A DNA stretch of 17,145 nucleotides, from positions 1-17,145 of the forward strand of contig JBJCIZ010001328.1 in assembly GCA_051294375.1 (NCBI GenBank), written 5' to 3'. The notes beneath the pieces were generated by a model. The model was not told where the DNA came from. It did not search any database and saw only the letters and a list, made by a program, of their open reading frames with translations. The number at the start of each line of letters is the position of its first letter. The stretch's first letter is position 1. Source of the stretch: Paraspadella gotoi. Lineage: Eukaryota > Animalia > Chaetognatha. Below are positions 1 through 17,145 of the stretch, one piece after another. The position numbers were made by a program, and so were the translations under genes.

Positions 1-128
1 TGAGGCATGTTGCCTGATGTGTTGTGTGCGGAAAGTGCATCGCCAGGTTGAGAAGGTTGGGAAGCGAATGCCTTGCCTCCAGCACCAATGGCCGCTGATG
101 AACGGTTGGTGGATTTTAGTCCACCATA
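1..128 (-). mobile_element. Internally deleted copy of the tRNA-bearing TRIM family (5' part of LTR fused to internal repeat; runs off window start)
   Basis: Reverse complement of ~55-128 matches LTR 918-~991 (TATGGTGGACTAAAATCCACC...). Reverse complement of 1-52 matches the internal region ~787-838 (ctcaacctggcgatgcactttccgc.cacaacacatcaggc.acatgcctca). Confidence 0.85.
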
Positions 129-310: not shown

Positions 311-357
311 TATGGTGGACTAAAATCTCGGTTCTGTCACTAACTCATAACAATAAT
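311..357 (+). mobile_element. Solo LTR of the TRIM family, left part (internally deleted, lacks tRNA-like core; interrupted by hAT insertion)
   Basis: TATGGTGGACTAAAATC is joined directly to (c)ggttctgtcactaactcataacaataat. Preceded by ATAG (307-310). The LTR sequence resumes at 3873-3892. Confidence 0.85.
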
Positions 358-526
358 CTGTGTTTGGAAAAACCCGGGTTTTTTTTTAAAAAAACCTAGC
401 CCAGTGGGTTTTTTGGTTTTTTTTAAAAATTACTAAGTCCAATCATCTTTAAACAGTTTCTTTTTACTTTTAAGGCAGTAACTATGTTGATAGTATAATG
501 GACTAAAATCCACCAACCATTCATCA

Positions 527-598
527 GCAGCCATTGGTGCCGGAGGCAAGTCATTCGCCTCCCAACCCAAAGGTCCGGGGTTCTTGCCCGGTGGTTGC
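527..598 (+). ncRNA. tRNA-Gly-like pseudo-tRNA (putative Pol III promoter) in 5' LTR
   Basis: 72 nt. Acceptor stem GCAGCCA/TGGTTGC at tRNA positions 1-7/66-72; T-stem CCGGG/CCCGG at 49-53/61-65 with GTTC. A-box-like TGGTGCCGGAGG. Loop CTCCCAA; the anticodon stem pairs poorly, so this is not a functional tRNA. Confidence 0.75.
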
Positions 599-730
599 CT
601 AGCAATTAAGAGGGACGGGGCGCTTTACCCGCCTGTAACATGGTGATACAGCCTGATCCGAAGCTCAGGGACTGCTTATATATTTAACGGTTTTATCACT
701 AACTCATAACAATAATTACTGTCTCTTCAT

Positions 731-746
731 TGGTGAGCCCGACTTC
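731..746 (+). promoter_or_regulatory. Primer-binding site, tRNA-Trp-like
   Basis: TGGTGAGCCCGAC lies 1 nt after the LTR-terminal CA. It matches 12/13 to TGGTGACCCCGAC, the complement of the eukaryotic tRNA-Trp 3' end (recalled, not searched). Confidence 0.75.
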
Positions 747-759
747 CGAACACAACAGC

Positions 760-870
760 AACAACAACACTTTCAGGCGTCATGCCTCAACCTGGCGATG
801 CACTTTCCGCCCACAACACATCAGGCGACATGCCTCAACTTGGTGACGAACTTTCCAACAACAACAACAA
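760..870 (+). repeat. Two ~50-bp tandem units plus (caa)n in the TRIM interior
   Basis: caacac.tcaggcg.catgcctcaac.tgg.ga.g.actttcc occurs twice (~765-808 and ~814-857). Confidence 0.8.
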
Positions 871-903
871 TTCACTGAAGAGACGCAACAGAATTCTCCC
901 TAC

Positions 904-915
904 AGGAGGGGGGGA
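904..915 (+). promoter_or_regulatory. Polypurine tract
   Basis: AGGAGGGGGGGA immediately upstream of TG and the 3' LTR. Confidence 0.85.
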
Positions 916-950
916 TGTATGGTGGACTAAAATCCACCAACCGTTCATCA

Positions 951-1022
951 GCAGCCATTGGTGCCGGAGGCAAGTCATTCACCTCCCAACCCAAAGGTCC
1001 GGGGTTCTTGCCCGGTGGTTGC
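951..1022 (+). ncRNA. tRNA-Gly-like pseudo-tRNA in 3' LTR
   Basis: Near-identical to 527-598, with the same acceptor and T stems. Confidence 0.75.
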
Positions 1023-1282
1023 CTACAGTTAAGAGGGACGGTGTTACAGCCTGATCCGAAGCTCAGGAACTGCTTATATTGAACGGTTCTATCACTAACA
1101 CATAACAATAATTACTGTCTCTTCAATAGGCTTTTAACTGATGAATCTGTTATAATTTTTTTCTTTTTGGATTAATATTGGAAAATTAATAGGCTTTATC
1201 ACATTGTATGAACTGATACTTTAATCTTTTTATACATAATGATGTTAGGAAAATTTGTTTTCTGTCTTTTGTTCTCTTCCAA

Positions 1283-2360
1283 TTTTTAGTCTGCTTTTCA
1301 GCAGATCCCGACTCTATAATTCACTTTGTCGGTCCGTCGGTCCACCCCCTCAATATTGTCGGGCACTAACTTATATCAAGTCAGAACATCGAATTATGAT
1401 AAATTATTAACAAGTATGAGCAATGTCAGATCTGCCCACGATCATTATCGGTAATTAATTAATTAATTAATTAAAAATTAATTTATTCAAGTTAATTATT
1501 TAATTAATTATGCAATTAATTTGATCAAAAATGTTTGTTTTGATTGATTAATTTATTAATTAATTATTAATTAATTAATTAACTAATTGATTAATTAACT
1601 AATTAATTATTTGATTAAATAATACATCTTGCATTTACATTTAAAATAAAAAGAAAAAGAACATAATCAATTAGTGAAACAGGTTCTTTGTTTTTTCCAT
1701 TTAAACTCATTTCCACTTGGACGATTCCATCGAAACTTCATATCCAGCTCAATCACACACTTCCCTACCCACACACAAAATTTCATTCCAATCCATCCAT
1801 CCAATCATGAGTAATTGGTGTTTTTTGCTAAGGTGGGACGGATGGACAGACGGACGAACGGACTGATGGACAGACGGACGCACTGACATCGTTTTTTTTT
1901 GCATAATTTATCATAATTCGATTTTCTGACATAAGTGAATGCCCGACAAGATTGAGGGGGCGAACCGATGTCCGTCCATCTGTCTGTCTGTCCGTCCCTC
2001 CCACCTTAGCAAAAAACTCCAATAGCTCGTAATTGGATGGATGGATTGGAATGAAATTTTGTGTGTGGGTAGGGAAGTGTGTGATTGACCTGGACATGAA
2101 GTTTCGATGGAATCGTCCAATAATTAATTAATCAGTCAATTAATCAATCAAAACAAACATTTTGGATCAAATTAATTAATCAATTGCCTAATTATTTAAT
2201 TAATTAAATAATTGAATTAATTAATTAATTTTTGGATCAAATTAATTAATCAATTGCCTAATTATTTAGTTAAATAAATAGTTGAATTAATTAGTTAATT
2301 AATTAATTAATTACCGATTATGATCGTGGGCAGATCCTACATTGTTTGCTCAAATTGGTT
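1283..2360 (+). mobile_element. Helentron/HINE (DINE-1-like) non-autonomous element with a nested antisense copy of itself (1409-1968)
   Basis: 5' end tttttagt..ctgct.tcagcagatcccgactctataa is shared with 8871 and 17142(-). Contains (GTCC/GTCT)n microsatellite, atgaaattttgtgtgtgggtag core unit, AATT-rich tract, and 3' end gggcagatcc..tttgctcaaa.t.gtt. T-rich junctions with no TSD. Family assignment is from architecture only. Confidence 0.7.
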
Positions 2361-2365
2361 TAACA

Positions 2366-3500
2366 ATGCCGTTTGGTAGTAGTAGAAAAAAAGGAACGGA
2401 GTGGGCAGAGGTGAGCCCGGTTGAAAATGACTCAAAAAAAGTTAGCTGCGATCACTGCTGTGAAAAAAATTAGTAATAAGATAGAACGAATTCACTTGCA
2501 TCTAAAAAAGTGTAAGGAGAAGAAAAAAGAACGAGAGGACTTATCATTTCAAATGAAAAGTACGATAGGACTTATCATTTCAAATGAAAAGAATAAGAGG
2601 ACTTATCATTTCAAATGAAAAGAAAGAGAGGACTTATCATTTCAAATGAAAATAACAAGAGGACTTATCATTTTAAATAAAAAGAACGAGAAGACTTATC
2701 ATTTCAAATGAAAAGAACGACAGGACTTATCATTTCAAATGAAAAGAACGAGAAGACTTATCATTTCAAATGAAAAGAATGAGAGGACTTATCATTTCAA
2801 ATGAAAAGAATGAGAGGACTTATCATTTCAGATGAAAAGAACGAGAGGAATTATCATTTCAAATGAAAAGAACGAGAGGACTTATCATTTCAAATGAAAA
2901 GAACGAGAGGACTGATCATTTCAAATGTCTCTCCCATTAAATCGTCCTCTGAGTTCAATGAGCAATTCTTCTGACATGTCTGATTCGTCAAGTTTGTGTC
3001 CTACTCCAGCTGATTTAAAAGAAAAAATTGATAAACACGTGGGAAAGTATGTAATTTTATTTATTTTAATAAAAAATGTATTTAATTATGTTTTTAGGTA
3101 CATGTTTGAAAAAGGAGTGGAGCCTTTTCATTTTATAGCATAGTTGACAGATCATCGTACTTTAACTGGAGAATTTTTAGAATTAGAAACTTTTACAGCA
3201 TTACTTTAGCTATAAACTTAAAAAGAAAGAGTATTTCCTTCAGCATATGTTTCTACTCACTCTTAGCAAGATGGCGCTCACAGACTGGTGGAAAATTATG
3301 AAGAAAAATTTTTTTCTGACAGTAGTGAAGAAAACAGTTTTGCTTCTTTCTGTACCTTTATGATTTTTTTTTACTCTTGCCAAGCCAGCTCAGCTTCAAT
3401 AGAAAGATGGTTTTCAACTTTTGGGTTAGTTTGGTCCAAAACCAGAAATAAACTTGGGCCAGAAAAAGCTATGAAACTGGTAAAGGTTTATAAAGCCTGA
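2366..3500 (+). pseudogene. hAT transposase pseudogene (BED zinc finger, central deletion, C-terminal dimerization domain)
   Basis: From ATG 2366: MPFGSSRKKGTEWAEV..KKVSCDHCCEK, frameshift in an A-run, then ISNKIERIHLHLKKC (W..CxxC..HxxxC BED pattern). GT-AG intron 3047-3097. PFHFIA*LTDHR resembles the hAT LLDPR-type motif. Then TDWWK and ASSASIERWFSTFGLVWSKTRNKLGPEKAMKLV (hAT dimerization domain). Stops and frameshifts present; far too short to be intact. Confidence 0.9.
2525..2927 (+). repeat. Minisatellite, 13 x 31 bp (aaaagaacgagaggacttatcatttcaaatg)
   Basis: Contiguous 31-bp period over 403 bp, no spacers, few substitutions. Confidence 0.95.
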
Positions 3501-3872
3501 CAAAAACAGGATTAAAAAAGAAAGATAATGAAATTGTAAATAATGTAAATATCAAATTATTGTGGCCCAATTTTTAAGTCAGATAACAAAGATCAAGTCA
3601 GTCAGTCAGAGATGAAGAATTTCAAGTTAGATCAGCTAAAACACAACAGAAATCAAGTATAGAAAGACGTCTAAGAACGTAGTTTATAAAGTAGTCAGAT
3701 GCTGCTATATAGTTGCATTTAATATTTAAGAAGTTTATTAATTATAATAAAAGAGAAAGATAACCAAAAAAATATATTATTTTTATATATATATATATAT
3801 TTAGCTCCGGTTTTTTTGTTTTTTTAGCTGGGTTTTTTGGGTTTTTGGTGGGTTTTTTTAATGCCAGCCTGC

Positions 3873-3892
3873 ACAATAATTACTGTCTTTCA
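3873..3892 (+). mobile_element. Solo LTR of TRIM family, right part
   Basis: acaataattactgtctttCA matches the LTR 3' end and is followed by ATAG (3893-3896), matching ATAG at 307-310. Confidence 0.8.
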
Positions 3893-4139
3893 ATAGCTAT
3901 TTTAGTGTAAAACTAAGTCCTGACGAATTTTTTGATGTGTTAACCATTTTTTGTGTATATTTATTTTCATGCTTCTTTGGTCAAAAATTGACGATTTTAA
4001 TGTTATATAAAATTGTCATAAAAAAGAAAACAATTATAAATTTGGATGATAATTGTGTTTTTCCTTTCTGTTTTGTTGTGATTTGATTTTAGAACAAAGT
4101 TTTGAAGAGAGATTTAACAACAAATTTTATTTCATAGTG

Positions 4140-4183
4140 AAACGGATATGTTTCGACTCATACGAGTCTTCTTCCAGCGCCAA
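4140..4183 (-). ncRNA. Minimal type I hammerhead ribozyme, degenerate copy
   Basis: Minus strand reads tggcg CTGGAAGA a GACTC gtat GAGTC GAAAC atATC cgttt. One extra G in the core; AUC cleavage triplet. Confidence 0.6.
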
Positions 4184-5237
4184 TTCAATTGTGAATTTGA
4201 AGAGAATTTTGTGCATAAATGAAAAGAGAAGAGAGAGAGAGATAGAGAGACAGAGCAAAGTTTCCAACACAGAGTTTTGAGAGAAAGATAGTGGTTCAGT
4301 TTTTTATTAGGGACAGGTGAAGGTGAGGACAGAGATAGTTGTGAAAGAAATTGAAAAAGAGAGAGAGAGAGACAGTGCTTGAAAATACAATATATTATGA
4401 AATGTACAACAAAGTTAACTAAAGTAAACTTTAGTAATAAATAATATCAGCAATTAGCTACCGTAAATAATTAGTGAAGTGAAATAGAAGTTCAGAATAT
4501 GAAAATTTTATTGTTAGTGAGGGATAGCTAAGTAATTAGGAAAAGGGAAAATTTCAAGTAATAAGAAAGAGCTCAAAATGAAGGGGGGCGAGGCACACAC
4601 TTCTGTCGGAAAGTGGCAAGAATGGACAGCCGCCCACCTCGCCAGCAGGCAAGAAGAGGCAGTCGGCTAGGTCGTACCAGGCCAGAGAGACATCGAGTTA
4701 CCTTTAGTTTCTTCCTGCAAGGAAGTTCTCCCAACTCTGCCACAAGTAGGCTCCACCAACCTGTCCTCTCAGCCAATGACACACCAATGACCCGACCTTA
4801 TCATCTCGCCTTTCATTTGTTATAACCAAGGGGGGCCAGCTCATTTTGAGCTCTTTCTTATTACTTGAAATTTCCCTTTTCCTAATTACTTAGCTATCCC
4901 TCACTAACAATTAATATTTCATATTTCTTGAACTTCTTATTTCAACTTCACTATTTATTACAGTAGCTAATTTTGATATTATTTCATTACTAAAGTTTTA
5001 CCAAAATTTTAACTGTTGTGTACATTTCATAATGTATATATTTATTTCAAGCACTGTCTCTCTCTCTCTCTCTCTCCATTCAATTTCTTTTCACAAACTA
5101 TCTCTGTCCTCACCTTCACCTGTCCCTAATAAAAACTGAACACTATCCTTTCTCTCAAACTCTGTGTTGGAAACTTTGCTCTGTCTCTCTCTCTCTTTCT
5201 TTATGCACAAAATTCTCTTCAAATTCACAAATTAAAT

Positions 5238-5281
5238 TGGCACTGAAGAAGACTCGTATGTGAGTCGAAACATGTCCGTTT
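5238..5281 (+). ncRNA. Minimal type I hammerhead ribozyme (Penelope-type)
   Basis: CTGAAGA (5243-5249), stem II GACTC/GAGTC (5251-5255/5262-5266), GAAA (5267-5270), palindromic stem III ACATGT (5270-5275), GUC with predicted cleavage after 5276, short stem I, AATAAA at ~5290. Confidence 0.8.
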
Positions 5282-5852
5282 CACTATGAAATAAAAATCG
5301 TTGTTAAATCTCTCTTCAAAACTTTGTTCTAAATTTGTGATAAATAAAATTATTAAAATTCTATAAAATTTACATGAGCTTTTGAAATATAAAAATAAAG
5401 ACTTATAAAATTGTTTTGGTAAGTTTATTTTTAAATTTTATATTTTATAAAAAGTTAGTAAACTATATTTATTAATAATTATAAGTAAAAATTAGGTTAA
5501 AGTTCAAAAATAATAATTTCAAAATTGTATTCCTGGTTTTGCATTCCATGCAAGAAGTTGATATAAGAAAATATAATTTTTGGCACTTTTTTCAAAGAAG
5601 CCCCCTTGTGCGGCTCCTGAAGCAGCGGACTCAAACACATACACAAAAATCGTATATTTTGCTGCTTCCATCGTCGCTTTATGGTCACTCCTTTTGTCGT
5701 TGCTCTCACCGTCGCAACTGCTTCCTCCATCGATCAAATTGTCGTCGTCGATTCTGTCAATCCCGATCCTGGCGGAGGCTTAATTCTTTCTCTCGCTGAG
5801 TCACCCAGCAAGCCAGAATTTTATTGTTGCAAAAGTAGCGTCGGGAAAAATG

Positions 5853-6468: not shown

Positions 6469-6617
6469 CAAAAATCGCAATTTCCGACAAAGAAGATGAA
6501 ACTATACAAACAAATGGTTATCGACATCGAATTCTACAGACTTCATTACACTAAAATAGCCTCTAAGCATTATATTAAATTTAATTGAATCTATTTTAAG
6601 TAATATGACCTATTTAC

Positions 6618-6779
6618 TTTAAGATCGATCTCTCTTTTGTTCGAAGCAACGTGTGGGAGAATGACTTTGAGCAAACGACTTGGTTGGGGATATAGTAAGT
6701 ACTGATCATCGATCGAAACAAGGCGATCCGCGGGATTGATGTGGGTCGACTGCATCAGCTCATAGGCCAGGCGGCAAAT
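6618..6779 (-). CDS. FUT8: Internal exon of alpha-(1,6)-fucosyltransferase-like gene (end of catalytic domain/start of SH3)
   Basis: Polypyrimidine tract with CAG acceptor (6782-6780) and GTAAAT donor (6617); 162 nt, phase 0/0. ICRLAYELMQSTHINPADRLVSIDDQYLLYPQ..HVASNKREIDLK parallels FUT8 [44 protein letters not shown]. Confidence 0.9.
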
Positions 6780-7157
6780 CTGAAGATGGAGAAAAATAAA
6801 AAAAATGATTTCAAGGTACATAATAGAATATAACTGATCGATAAACCATATTTTTATATAAAATAATATTATAATAAGAATTCATATATACTGACTAAAC
6901 TTTAATTCACACTAAAGCTAGAGGCTTTCGGATCAGTAGAAATACAGGGTCCGGAATCAAAAGTTATAGTTCTATTTAAATGACAAGAGATTTTTAAATA
7001 TTTTATAAAAATTATTGTAAAAGAGCTCAAGTGAAAGCTTAGTGTTTATTGTATCTTTACAATTTAGGTCTAATTTTGATGAAATAGAAATCTAGATTTA
7101 TTGCAAATGCGAAACGATTTGTATATTTATAATTATGTACAAGGCAGCAAAGTATTT

Positions 7158-7204
7158 CAATGTGAAAATATAACTGTACATTGTACAGTTATATTTTCAC
7201 ATTG
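7158..7204. repeat. Perfect 23-bp inverted repeat with 1-nt spacer (intronic)
   Basis: caatgtgaaaatataactgtaca-t-tgtacagttatattttcacattg. Confidence 0.95.
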
Positions 7205-8273
7205 TACAACCATTCGGGCCGAGGGCTTATCCTTTGAATGATCAGTCTCTTGCTTTTCCTGTCCCTAGGCCCATCCAACGTTGCCCTTTACCCCAGTCCC
7301 AGTTCTTGCCCCGTGATTCGCCTATCTCGCGCTCTTCGTCGATCGCGACTCCGCGGTCAGAGAGAGAGAGAGATAGAGAGAGGGAGAGAGAGATAGGGAA
7401 CGTGGCAGAGGGGGAGGCGGATCCTGGTATCCACTGACGGTATCATTGACCCAAATATTATTAACTTAAATTACAAAATAAGTTCACAGTGAGGCAGAAG
7501 AGATAAGGTGTCAGTATCCCTTTGCGCCAAAATCAATCAAAAATATATTTGATATTGATTTTGAGTCTCCAGTAAATTAAATTAAATTGAATTAAATTAT
7601 TGACACTGGGTAAAATTAACTTATCATGTTATCAACTATTACTATACCAAACATTATCGTTATGTCACAATGATTGGGCTAATGATAAGAGATAATATAA
7701 AAATGGTAAATAAAACAAGTGCTGAAGCCAATTAATATGAACTTTGGTGCCATTTAAGGCCTTGGGTAAAGTTTAAGTCTTCAGGATGATAACCAAAGCT
7801 CAAAAAAAGATTTACTGCTTTACTGCCTCATATTGTAATGCGGCAACAGTATTTAAGTAATGAATAAGATTTTTATTTGAAATCATTAGACTTTTTAACC
7901 TTAGCCTGTTCAGATGTCAGACTTTTTATGAGCTCAATGTATTGCGTCTTAAAACAGACTTCCCCCAGGTCCTAAAACCCAAGTTTGGAAGCTTTCCAAA
8001 AAACCATAGTTAAGTTGTGAACTAAAATTTGTAAAGACTTTTCACAAAGATATACGCACTTTCCCCCTTCTTGGAGAGGCCGTAAAAGCTCGGAATGCAG
8101 TGTACGACGAGATTACGACGAGTGTACGTCAAGAATAAAACTTCTCTGCGTTTAGTTTATATTTTATATAAATTTCATTGATATCCTTCAAACGGTTCAG
8201 GAGATAAGTGTTTATTTGTAAAATAATAATTTTTGCTTTCGAACCCTGTAAAGTTAAACAGAAATTGGGTTAC

Positions 8274-8424
8274 ATTTGAACTGAGAGTGCAGACCACAAA
8301 ATCAGCATCAGCCAAGAAGTAAATGTCTCGTATGACTCCCAATAGCGATTCTGGAGTGTATCTGGAATGCTTTGCCTGATTTGTATTGTTCTTGTCAAAA
8401 ACGAAGATGTAGTTCTTTGAAAAA
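8274..8424 (-). CDS. FUT8: Internal exon of alpha-(1,6)-fucosyltransferase-like gene (catalytic domain)
   Basis: ttttAG acceptor (8426-8425) and GTAACC donor (8273); 151 nt. FSKNYIFVFDKNNTNQAKHSRYTPESLLGVIRDIYFLADADFVVCTLSSN parallels FUT8 [30 protein letters not shown]. Splices in frame to 6779. Confidence 0.92.
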
Positions 8425-8870: not shown

Positions 8871-9803
8871 TTTTTAGTCGGAACTGCTTATCAGCAGATC
8901 CCGACTCTATAATTCACTTTGTCGGTCCGTCGGTCCGCCCCCTCAATATTGTCGGGCACTAACTTATATCATGTCAGAACATGGAATTTTGATTTTCAAA
9001 TAATTAATCAGTTAATTATTTAATTAGTCAATTAATTAATCAATAATTAATTAATCAGTCAATCAATCCGTCCATCCGTCCCACCTTAGCAAAAAGCTCC
9101 GATAACTCGTGATTGGCTGGTTGGATTAGAATGAAATTTTGTGTGTGGGTAGGAAAGTGTGTGATAAAGCTGGATATAAAATTTCGTGTGAGTGGAATTG
9201 AGTTTAAATTGAAAAAACATAAGTCGCATTTACTAAAATCTTTTTACTTATTTAAACTAATAAATACTCTAATTAATCATAATTGAATGGATAGATTGAG
9301 TTCAAATTTTGAGTGTGGGTAGAAAAATGTGTGACGAAGGTTGATATAAAGTTTCGGTGGAAACGTATGAGTGGAAATGAGTTTAAATGAATTTGAATTT
9401 GAATGAAATTTTGTGTGTGGATAGGAAAGTGTGTGATGAAGAAGGCCTTGATATAAAGTTTCGTTACGAGTGGAAATGAGTTTAAATGAAAAAATTATGA
9501 GTCACATTTACTTGAATCTTTTTACTTATTTTAACCCATAATAGATTGAGATAAAATTGTGCGCGGGTAGGAAAGTGTGTGAAGAAGCTAGATATAAAGT
9601 TTGACGGAATTGTGCCAGTGGGAATGAGTTTAAATGGAAAAAAACATGAGTCATATTTACTTGAATCTTTATTATTATGATTACTAATAAATGTCTTAAT
9701 TAATTAATTAATGTGAAAAGATTGCAATTTAAAAAAATTATGCTAGTTGAAAAAATGATGCAAGTTAAAACAATTCTTAAAAGCATAAGGATCGTCGCAA
9801 TTA

Positions 9804-13420: not shown

Positions 13421-14402
13421 AGGATTTTTTTAACTGCATCATTTTTTCTATATTAATTAATTAATTAATTAAACATTCATTAGTAATCATAAATTATGTA
13501 ATCATAAATAATAATTAAATAAAGATTAAGTAAATGTGACTTATGTGTTTTCCATTAAACTCATTGTACCTGGCACAATTCCGTCCAAACTTTATAATCT
13601 AGCTTCTTCAACACTTTCCTACCCGCTCACACAATTTCATCTCAATCTATTATGGCGCGTTAAATAAGTAAACAAGATTCAAGTAAATAGTGATCATATT
13701 TTCATTATAAATCTTCTCCACTCAGTACGTGGTTTCCACCGAAACTTTAAAGTATCAAGCATGCGTTACACATTTTTCTACCCCAGCACAAAATAATTTG
13801 AAACTCAACTCAGGTATCATACCAATTTATGATTAATGTAGCAGTACTTATTAGTTAAAAATAATAAAATATTTTAGTAAATGCCGACTTATGTTTTTTC
13901 CACTTAAACTCATTTCCACTCACGACGATTCCTGTGCGAACTACTTTATAGTGTCCATAGCCATTGAATATCACACAGTTCCTAGCCACACAAAAAATTT
14001 AAATTCCAATCCAACGCCCAATCCACGAGTTATTGGAGCTTTGTGCGTAAGAGTGGGGGCGTGATGGACGGATTGAGTTGGACTGATTAATTAATTATTG
14101 ATTAATTGATTTATTTATTGATAATTAATTGACTAATTTATTAGTGTAACTGATTAATTATTTGGTTATTAATAATCCTGCATATAATTTAATATAAAAG
14201 GAAAAAGAATCATAATCAATTATTTGATGAATACAGGGTTTTTTTGTTAATTTACATATTATAAACTCATTTCCACCAAAGATTTCCCATCGAAACTTGG
14301 TTTCCTGTTCAATCACACGACTTCTTCATCACATACCAAAAATTCTCAGGTCAAGTCGATAAGGTGAGTAGTGGTACTGAAGGTTACATTGTTCATACGG
14401 GT

Positions 14403-14795
14403 TGCCATAATTTAATTAACTTTGCATTAATTTGGTTAACGTGACCATGATTTTTGGTTAGAACTGACCCATAATTTGTCTACTGACAATAATTTGGTCT
14501 ACTGAATAATTTAGGTCAACTGCACATAATTTGTATCAACTGAATAATTTGATCAACTCTACTAGATAATTTGGTCACATAAGTCACCGTGCATAATTAT
14601 TTATCAACTGGCTTCTTCTCTAATCTTATTTGGTTCAACTGGTCCGCTAATGTTGGTCAACAGGCATAATTGGCTAACTTGCAGAACTTGGATGGAACCT
14701 TGCAGAATTTGAGTCAACGGGCAACCATTTGCGTCAACTTAAGAAGTTGTGTCAAACTTGGCATATTTTTGTCAATTGCAATAATTTGGATCAAT
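14403..14795 (+). repeat. Noisy ~18-bp tandem repeat (gcataatttggtcaact)
   Basis: Roughly 20 degenerate recurrences of cataatttg.tcaactg. Confidence 0.75.
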
Positions 14796-17145
14796 CGAAT
14801 TCTAGATCAAAGAGAGGATAGTAGTGAGAGAAAACTTTTAAAAATTCAAAATACAATGTGGTATTTTGGTTTTCCGAGTTTGAACTCGTCTTCCGATCCG
14901 ACGATATCCATCAAAAAAATATTATCCGCTGTTATCACATACTTTCCTACCCACACACAAAGATTACAATTTCGATTTACTATTCCAATTTTAATAAACA
15001 TGAATAATTATGAGTAAATTTAAGTAAAATACTTCAAGTAAATAGTGACTATTTTGGATTTTTCTTTGACGCATAAATATTAAGATCATTTCCACTGCGC
15101 ACGATCCATCGAAGACATTATATCCAGGGCTCAATCACACACTTTCCTACCAGCATACAAAGTTTTCAAGTCAATTGCCCTATCCAATCATGGCCCAATT
15201 GTTCGCGTTCAAATGAGTGACTAATATTTTTTTGGTTTTTTTCCATTTAAAGCCAATTTCACTCGCACCGATCCCGGAAATCCGTCTTCATATCCATCTT
15301 CAATCTACGACCGAATTTTACCGTACTCCACACCAAATAGGATTTCTTCCCGAAAAAGATGTGAAGGCACTGAACAACCACATCCATCACATCTACCAGG
15401 ATCATCGACGCGAGTAATGCCGGAGGTGTTATTCTTAGGCTAAGGAGTGGGAAGCGAAAATCCGGTAACTAACCACGCGACAGACGTTATAGGGAACCCA
15501 AAGAATTTTCGTAATGTACTGTTGTTGAATTTTTCTTTTTTTTGTTAGCGACGGCGAACGCGAAACATCTTGTTTTTTTTGCATAATCTATCATAAGATG
15601 TCCTGCAGTGATTTCTGGAGCACGATAATGGATAAAGGGTGCGGGAGAAAGATGTAAGCCACGACGATAGTAGGAGTAGTCGTGACACGACCGGATAAGG
15701 TCCAGACAAATATTGTTGTAAAAGTACGATGATATAGAGATCACGAGGAACTCCTGAAGTGACCAAGATCATAGCTCAGAACCGAAATGACGGCACGTTT
15801 GAAGTAATATCCACAGACAGGTTAGATGAATGAAAATTTAAAAGCCTATTACAATGATGATGAGAATATAAGTATTACCCTATAAATATAAATGTTTTAA
15901 GTAGGTAAAACAAATTAACAATAATATTATTAATCCGGCAAGTACAATATAAAACTTTCTAATGAATATACAAATGTTTGAAGTCTGTTTATCAAGATGG
16001 AAATATATACTATAATGGAGGCTAAACTCCAAAAATAGGTCATCCGGTGACGCTACAATAACTTAAATTAATAAGAAATTCAGTTACTTAAAGTACTTCT
16101 ATATAAGTCTATTCATAAGTCCTCTAGAGTTCTGGTATCCACTGTAATAGCATTTACGTTTTTATTTCATTAAGTTAGATAATAAAGGATGATAAATAAT
16201 AATAATTATTGAATTTCTCAGCCTTGTCATCATGCTCGAAGTTCCTTAAAAATTTGAATCCAGTCAGGACAGTTAGTTTTTAAGGATGCATTATATTCGT
16301 TACCTATTTTATGTAGTAATCTCAAATAAGTAATATATCAAATTATCTTTATATCCTCTATATCTTTCTCTTATATTTGTATAAAGGATGTGAATAAAGA
16401 ATAGCGGACTTTCCGTTATGCTTTTAAGATTTTTTTGAACCTACGAGCATCATTTTTCGCAATTGGCATCCATGTTTTCAACTTGCTATCCGGTCCAAAA
16501 CCCTTGTATATCTAGCTTCTTCACTCTATTCCCCCTTGGAACGATTCCATCGAAACTTCATCAAGTCACAGCCTCCAATCACCATACGAGCGGTGTAAAA
16601 TAGATATCGAACGATTATCAAACAAAATCACACCAAAAATTTCAATTATCAAAATCCAATCTCTCCATCCCATATTCCACGAGTAATTTGTGTATGTTTT
16701 GCTAACAGGGGAAAAGACCGGAAGACCGACGAGAACGGGTTACCGGGGTGTCCAGCATTATTCGATTTACCCCTATTGATATAAATTAGCATTTCAATAT
16801 TAAAGATAATTAAAGTAATATTTTCAATGAATAAGATCTGAAGAGTTATTATCATGATAACGAAGACAATGGACCTACAAGATCCAGGACAGACATGTAC
16901 TAGACAGGCTTCTGTGTTAACTGGACAATAACTGTTTTTTTAGAATGGAATGAATCCATAATCTCGGAACTGGTGTTAACGTGCTGCCACCATGAAATAG
17001 TGAACGGGTTGCAGTAGTTCCACCTTCGGTCGTATATATGTGTGAACCAAAAATAGGAGGACGGGAAAGCGAACCTACGGACCCGACAAAGTCGACGTTA
17101 TAAAGAGTACGGGATCTGCTGATAAGCCAGATCCCGACTAAACAA

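Follow-up and report, generated by a model that had tools for sequence, protein, structure and literature searches.

A 17,145-nucleotide stretch of DNA from the arrow worm Paraspadella gotoi (here the window) holds a short non-coding retroelement with a tRNA-like part in its LTRs, and the question it raises is how such an element might be transcribed, processed and copied. The tRNA-like part at 527-598 is adjoined directly behind by a twister-type fold at 601-676, which went unnoticed in the earlier note on this DNA and which likely changes what the RNA intermediate is. A tRNA in an LTR belongs to a known class; the added twister fold is the new part, and it is well supported as a predicted motif. 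In this study, we re-derived the structure of the element, compared it with other copies of its family and weighed several accounts of how it may replicate.

Structure, ends and target site of the element

The ATAG-flanked element occupies 494-1125 (632 bp), with boundaries re-derived to single-base precision (Table 1). The earlier note had described an LTR-PBS-188 bp-PPT-LTR layout, a 4-bp TSD and an absence of coding capacity, and all of this held: the coordinates of the layout were confirmed to the base, ATAG stands on both sides, and the sole overlapping frames are a 105-aa stop-to-stop frame at 737-1054 and shorter ones. With two LTRs, a length below 1000 bp, no long frame, and a PBS and a PPT at the ends of the interior, the element has the properties of a TRIM and is almost certainly a real one. 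Its 5' and 3' LTRs differ by 10 substitutions and by indels of 25, 2 and 1 nt, and its interior carries a 48-nt unit in 2.2 copies (759-866). The 105-aa frame crosses the interior and the 3' LTR and reads the 48-nt repeat as a repeated peptide; it depends on the deletion in the 3' LTR of this copy and is probably incidental, or else a remnant of the 3' end of a helper.

Table 1. Features of the element and of related pieces in the window; ribozyme and promoter features are predictions
Feature	Position	Strand	Basis or remark
Rearranged third fragment	1-128	-	First 74 nt of LTR joined to part of the interior; runs off the window
Solo LTR of this family with an internal deletion, left part	311-357	+	Preceded by ATAG at 307-310; no tRNA-like part or ribozyme
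Left TSD, ATAG	490-493	+	Sequence; TA-centred 4-mers are also preferred in the flanks of other copies
5' LTR, 236 nt, TA...CA ends	494-729	+	LTR alignment; in four runs, the flanks at the equivalent ends are unrelated
Decayed tRNA-like segment, likely Pol III promoter	527-598	+	ARAGORN pseudogene call; acceptor stem kept in the family
A-box-like motif	535-546	+	Matches the consensus at 7 of 8 positions; A at 541 in 1-34% of family depth
B-box-like motif	580-589	+	Matches the consensus at 6 of 8 positions; 45 nt downstream of the A box; A at 585 in 95-100% of family depth
Predicted type-P5 twister ribozyme fold, damaged here	601-676	+	Sole descriptor match in the window
Twister P5	601-606/671-676	+	Predicted pairing
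Twister P2	611-613/628-630	+	Predicted pairing
Twister general-base G and A	G614 A615	+	Follows P2; no variant listed in the family
Twister pseudoknot T1	616-618/658-660	+	3 of 3 pairs
Twister P1 stub, six bases, self-complementary	619-624	+	Replaces P1
Twister cleavage triplet	625-627	+	Predicted cut between 625 and 626
Twister pseudoknot T2	631-632/663-664	+	2 of 2 pairs
Twister P3	633-640/644-651	+	Predicted pairing
Twister P4	652-656/665-669	+	5 of 5 pairs; closes the L4 loop
Non-coding interior, 188 nt	730-917	+	Between the two LTRs
PBS, tRNA-Trp type	731-743	+	12 of 13 bases equal the printed tRNA-Trp PBS of Gypsy-32_NVi and Helenus-2_SyJa
PPT	904-915	+	Followed by TG spacer 916-917, not part of the integrated end
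3' LTR, 208 nt	918-1125	+	tRNA-like part 951-1022; 25-nt deletion at 1039/1040
Right TSD, ATAG	1126-1129	+	Sequence
Right end of the solo LTR	3881-3892	+	Followed by ATAG at 3893-3896

The ends were fixed with contigs of four public sequencing runs (12,355, 427, 1,037 and 369) placed on positions 280-1300. In run X2, 133 contigs come loose before 918 and 36 before 917, while 108, 50 and 39 come loose behind 1125, 1126 and 1128, respectively (in each case among the 24 of 593 loose-end rows listed). More than 100 unrelated flanks per end in that run mark dispersed copies with fixed ends; copies of the family thus lie at well over a hundred sites in the genome. Because the contigs pass into unrelated flanks precisely before 918 and behind 1125, the integrated ends are TA...CA, the TG after the PPT being lost on integration. 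TG...CA ends were ruled out, as the contigs break at 918 and not at 916, and so was a reading of ATAG as element sequence, as the flanks of other copies vary. These flanks end or start with ATAT, CTAT or ATA, which indicates a target with a TA core; such a target also explains why ATAG recurs around a second, internally deleted solo LTR. The TSD can be read directly for both of the two insertions that have both ends inside the window. A DIRS-type internal complementary region was considered and rejected: interior positions 876-884 are the complement of the LTR end at 721-729 over 9 nt only, and the PBS, PPT and TSD indicate an integrase element.

Family copies and other features of the window

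The four runs share 25-67% of sampled words with the window and thus come from other individuals or strains; depth of the family in their contig tables, as quoted throughout, is not copy number. Substitutions at 529/953, 585/1009 and 596/1020 are common to both LTRs of this copy and reach no more than about 5% of family depth, as expected if both LTRs were copied from one template. In runs X6 and X8, none of the 7 listed joints is the 25-nt deletion of the 3' LTR. An exact LTR-start pattern had 0 matches in metagenome and viral contigs.

Within the window, the two parts of the solo LTR (311-357 and 3881-3892) lie on either side of a hAT-like insertion, which has an 8-bp duplication. This decayed hAT-like DNA transposon covers 358-3872, with a PF05699 match at 3267-3497 and the duplication at 350-357/3873-3880, and it includes a 31-nt tandem array (2525-2927, 13 copies, 91% matches). 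It interrupts a solo LTR of the family, and the full element lies inside it, so that the activity of the family both predates and postdates the hAT insertion. The search for an autonomous helper or partner element found none. One candidate, a deep contig of 2.2-2.6 kb from runs X6 and X8 that ends in a diverged LTR, was rejected, its flank being AT-rich and target-like and not a PPT, so that it is an LTR inserted in another repeat.

The window also holds two exons of an alpha-1,6-fucosyltransferase-like gene on the minus strand (6615-6779 and 8271-8420), with a PF19745 match below cut-off. HMMER returned 87 FUT8-like matches, and those named among the best 10 come from a beetle and from sea urchins, at 45-60% identity; the exons thus place the host among animals and no more finely. 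A motif search of the window found no next fucosyltransferase-like exon, and word-based protein searches aimed at the host gave no match. Further repeats comprise a MITE-like inverted repeat at 1291-2344 (1421-1474/2291-2344 and 1717-1866/1971-2120) with TAAT arrays, pieces related to it at 8884-9690 and 13500-16560, a large inverted-repeat element at 4088-5333 (arms 4088-4553 and 4868-5333, with a GC-richer core), and a near-perfect 51-nt palindrome at 7156-7206 with weak matches to miRNA families far below gathering scores.

The tRNA-like segment

The earlier note had read a 72-nt tRNA-shaped insert of tRNA-Gly type in both LTRs. ARAGORN at default settings found no tRNA, and Rfam gave no tRNA match at E values up to 5-10. 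With its threshold lowered to 85%, ARAGORN reports a pseudogene of tRNA-Gly(CCC) at 527-599, a result reached by 14 of 1000 dinucleotide shuffles of the LTR; the copy in the 3' LTR is missed at thresholds of 75% and above. The minimum-energy fold of the tRNA-like part is not a cloverleaf (z -2.4 and -1.6). Its acceptor-like stem is real, and its anticodon stem keeps 3 of 5 pairs, so that this is not a working tRNA. The tRNA shape is thus weaker than in the earlier description. The note had named the lack of a tRNA covariance signal among the results that would refute its reading, and Rfam gave no such signal for this copy; the Gly isotype comes from the anticodon triplet alone. A second ARAGORN call, tRNA-Tyr at 601-677 (80% threshold), was reached by 67 of 1000 shuffles; it coincides with the twister region, and we rejected it as a second tRNA.

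Other copies bear on the acceptor stem. In the family, 529 is G and 596 is C in at least 96% of depth, and this copy has A and T there in both LTRs; the exchange of a G-C for an A-U pair amounts to weak covariation, as both changes are also CpG-type transitions. Family variants at 595 (11-31%) and 598 (13-41%) switch pairs of the same stem between Watson-Crick and wobble. The two box-like motifs were scored against the consensus of the Pol III A and B boxes. The score of this copy is equalled by 921 of 5,000 shuffles, and one point more is reached in 108. Box B contains GGTTC (579-583); TRGCY is absent from box A, where TGGTG stands at 535. The family letters at 585 (A) and in part at 541 (A) are those of the box consensus. 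The only TTTT run lies at 691 and is a minority form, 693 being C in 72-97% of family depth. The earlier remark that no other run of four T occurs is correct, but this is at chance level, as 1,310 of 5,000 shuffles of 527-1125 lack one. All in all, the LTR likely contains a decayed tRNA-derived Pol III promoter.

A twister-type fold in the LTR

The order and motifs of 601-676 agree with the Rfam consensus line for Twister-P5. As in the type-P5 twister (RF02684), the order is P2-GA-T1-P1-UAA-P2-GC-P3-P4-L4, with an L4 loop and two pseudoknots. As reference we used 95 phage loci with the usual twister core and 6 in which T1 takes the CCG/CGG form. A strict descriptor found 97 of these 101 loci and had no match in the window. 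A relaxed descriptor, in which T is allowed after the cut, gave one match in the 17 kb on both strands, at 611-668; the relaxation was made after the sequence had been seen, and its matches in shuffled sequence number 11 in 100,000 for the LTR (all three permutations) and 7 in 30,000 for the element. T1 here reads CCG/CGG instead of the usual CCC/GGG, a change on both sides that keeps the pairing, and 5 of the 6 phage loci with this form have a complete twister layout. There is also precedent for a P2 5' strand of 3 nt, in two phage P5-type loci, L017 (48-96) and L094 (30-96). When Rfam was run on 20 phage loci, it called 3 as Twister-P5 and none of the other 17. The phage loci with the CCG/CGG pseudoknot include L096-L099 and L101, and five such loci fall below the Rfam gathering score.

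The family retains the letters that the fold requires: 626 is A in 97-100% of depth, and the required letters at 605 and 646 are present in 93-100%. Variants are listed at 3 of 33 core positions: at 626, and at 618 and 627, where a single contig of an altered subfamily in run X8 accounts for most of them. The commonest variant in P3, at 641 (24-68% of depth), sits in the loop. The P1 stem, here replaced by a six-base stub, has been described as dispensable in vitro (PMC5408937). A search with a family-like twister pattern gave 0 matches in viral contigs and 30 in metagenomes; a full P4 was present in 0 of these 30 and none resembled the element, and we rejected all of them as chance matches. 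A short-P1 pattern gave 4 viral matches that were likewise set aside, without convincing stems.

This copy is damaged. It differs from the family at 605, 626 and 646, of which 605 and 646 are mismatches in P5 and P3, and the N-A-A required at the cleavage site is present in the family but not here, where 626 is T. In the 3' LTR, the 25-nt deletion takes out the cleavage site together with P1, T2 and one half each of P2 and P3, and leaves the P4/L4 module at 1051-1066. With T at 626 and no cleavage site in the 3' LTR, this copy is predicted to stay uncut in either LTR. Rfam found no twister, even on 87 nt at E values up to 10. Our own covariance model, R1, built from 27 phage twisters that all have one P4 sequence, ranks 644-669 first in the window, in a different register, with an E value of 0.093 and 8.3 bits, compared with up to 9.6 bits for control loci.

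Other features concern the whole family. In comparison with known P5 twisters, P1 is a six-base stub, P2 has 2-3 pairs, P3 is present and the motif lies below Rfam detection. P2 consists of two Watson-Crick pairs and an A-C mismatch, or of three pairs with a bulge; four pairs are found in 64 of 76 distinct phage loci, and according to a review the active site may be disrupted when P2 gains or loses pairs (PMC5408937). In the minimum-energy fold, a hairpin between 613-619 and 628-633 prevents T1, P2 and T2 from forming. The stub at 619-624 can pair only with a second copy of itself (6 of 6 pairs including two G-U), for which we estimate a chance of about 1 in 20. The family is too uniform for its variants to give much covariation. 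On balance, the fold at 601-676 is very probably derived from a twister, and intact copies of the family are predicted, with moderate confidence, to cut.

A model for replication and its alternatives

We propose a model in which Pol III would start near 527. Most copies have no TTTT, and the transcript would read through both LTRs to the first T run of the flank, at 1132 here. The twister is predicted to cut between 625 and 626 and at the equivalent site in the 3' LTR, which would release a unit of one LTR and the interior, about 424 nt long. Through the six-base stub, the two ribozymes on a transcript could pair with each other and cut as a dimer, while a lone unit would stay uncut. A host RNA ligase could then circularise the unit, as in the LTR retrozymes of plants and the non-LTR retrozymes of animals; axolotl retrozymes have been shown to cut in a dimer-dependent way and to be ligated by RtcB (PMC7229834), and a circle route for LTR elements has been described before (PMC4918200). 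If only one LTR were cut, the transcript would retain a terminal repeat, and ordinary strand transfer would be open to it. As the PBS, PPT and TSD suggest, a tRNA-Trp-primed Gypsy reverse transcriptase would copy the RNA, and a Gypsy integrase would insert the product at TA-centred sites with a 4-bp duplication, leaving TA...CA ends. We lean slightly towards this reading as a whole, from the Pol III start through dimer cutting and a circle of about 424 nt to Gypsy copying, and regard the circle as the main intermediate only tentatively.

Three other explanations have to be weighed against this model, and the condition of the ribozyme bears on two of them. The element could be a plain Helenus-type TRIM with a fossil ribozyme that no longer cuts, its linear Pol III RNA running from about 527 to a flank T run and its reverse transcription proceeding by ordinary strand transfer over the 527-729 repeat. 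The weak P2, the stub P1, the competing hairpin and the lack of a Rfam twister match all fit this account, as does the absence of twister words from most published Helenus sequences searched (PMC10886601). T runs lie a median of 60 nt away in this DNA, so that no ribozyme would be needed to end the RNA. Against it stands the family itself, in which the catalytic and pseudoknot positions are kept in more than 93% of depth apart from the one altered-subfamily contig of run X8, and we consider a fossil unlikely. Somewhat less likely still is that the twister works as an end-maker that, at a single LTR, trims RNA derived from the flank or from read-through, with no circle formed and the linear RNA reverse-transcribed as usual. 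From the coordinates, a single cut would leave a repeat of 99 or 104 nt; the 5' ends of Perere-3 RNA are trimmed by twister variants without circles (PMC8501958); and the LTR-interior unit folds no better as a circle than shuffles do (z -0.7). A dimer, however, would cut both LTRs, and with LTRs that are identical when made, nothing obvious would limit cutting to one of them.

The remaining alternative concerns the promoter. Here the tRNA likeness would be incidental, 527-598 being a GC-rich hairpin domain and transcription being due to Pol II or read-through, as proposed for plant retrozymes. The missing Rfam tRNA match, a box score within chance, the unmatched TRGCY and the broken anticodon stem are what this account would predict. 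It does not readily explain the rarity among shuffles of a pseudogene call of tRNA length, the spacing of the A and B boxes in tRNA register or the box-consensus letters that the family has at 585 and partly at 541, and we judge it improbable.

Comparison with known systems

The earlier note had called the class rare rather than unprecedented and had proposed tRNA-Trp priming, and both points stand: a TRIM with a tRNA in its LTR is the published Helenus layout (PMC10886601), and the PBS agrees with the tRNA-Trp PBS printed in Figure S2 of that paper, where the tRNA origin of the LTR part is based on Censor similarity to tRNA or SINE2. Helenus (TRIMp3; Kojima 2024, PMC10886601) likewise consists of TRIMs below 1 kb with a tRNA-like LTR part, GGTTC, a PBS and a PPT, and animal Helenus have a 4-bp TSD and a PBS shared with Gypsy, as here. 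The nearest layouts are those of Helenus-2_SyJa and Helenus-2_SyUm from gall wasps, both with a tRNA-Trp PBS, and Helenus-3_MeDo also has a TA...CA LTR. The element differs in that box A lacks TRGCY, which together with YGG marks box A in most, though not all, Helenus families, and in that no T run follows the tRNA-like part as it does in many listed Helenus LTRs. Apart from the PBS, it has no sequence words in common with Helenus in the parts of the supplement searched, where line breaks can hide words. The earlier suggestion of an undescribed family is fair on this ground, and an independent origin is probable, but the class itself is known. The arrow worm phylum does not appear in Table 1 of Kojima 2024, and Pol III transcription is unproven for Helenus itself as well. 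By the tRNA-in-LTR feature alone, this would be a new Helenus-type family.

A twister-type fold sets the element apart from Helenus as described in the searched text of PMC10886601, which mentions no twister and no ribozyme in Helenus. By eye, we noticed hammerhead core words and complementary loops behind the tRNA-like part in Helenus-2_SyJa-LTR and Helenus-2_SyUm-LTR (DataS1), on which the paper does not comment. Cassandra TRIMs also have a Pol III promoter in the LTR, but theirs is 5S-derived, and they occur in plants and have no ribozyme (PMC10886601). The twister variants of Schistosoma Perere-3 have a P3 of similar sequence but lie at the 5' end of a LINE, whereas the fold described here sits in an LTR (PMC8501958). 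Truncated twisters of RTE elements, still unpublished, and insect elements with type III hammerheads have also been mentioned (PMC7761336). A literature search that had most subscription journals outside its reach found no paper on twister ribozymes in LTRs, and the accessible text of PMC2678813 had no passage on a PBS or tRNA.

The known LTR retrozymes are from plants and have hammerheads, and animal retrozymes have been described without LTR, PBS or PPT (PMC7761336, PMC7229834). Metazoan non-LTR retrozymes resemble the element in being short, animal, ribozyme-bounded units, but they have type I hammerheads and tandem repeats (PMC7229834). Plant LTR retrozymes (Cervera, Urbina and de la Pena 2016, PMC4918200) are non-coding LTR elements with a PBS, a PPT, a 4-bp TSD and a Gypsy helper, as found or proposed here, and have a ribozyme in each LTR whose double cut yields a unit without a terminal repeat, as in our model. 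They differ in their type III hammerhead, tRNA-Met PBS, circles of 600-1000 nt and lack of a tRNA-like promoter, and cutting and circles have been demonstrated for them, whereas here both are predicted from sequence (PMC4918200). Rfam found no hammerhead in the element, which is thus not an LTR retrozyme as defined, though it may work like one. If the twister works, a small-RNA promoter and a self-cutting RNA would have been recruited together, twisters would have a role in LTR retrotransposition, and the element would offer a short, abundant and easily assayed system for asking whether a circular RNA takes the place of strand transfer; for ribozyme biochemistry, a twister that naturally cuts only as a dimer would, if true, also be new. 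We tentatively put forward the element as an animal LTR retrozyme, that is, a Pol III TRIM with a dimer-gated P5 twister in each LTR, a circle of about 424 nt and tRNA-Trp-primed Gypsy copying, with the gall-wasp Helenus-2 as a possible overlooked parallel. With a working twister, it would be the animal counterpart of the plant LTR retrozymes.
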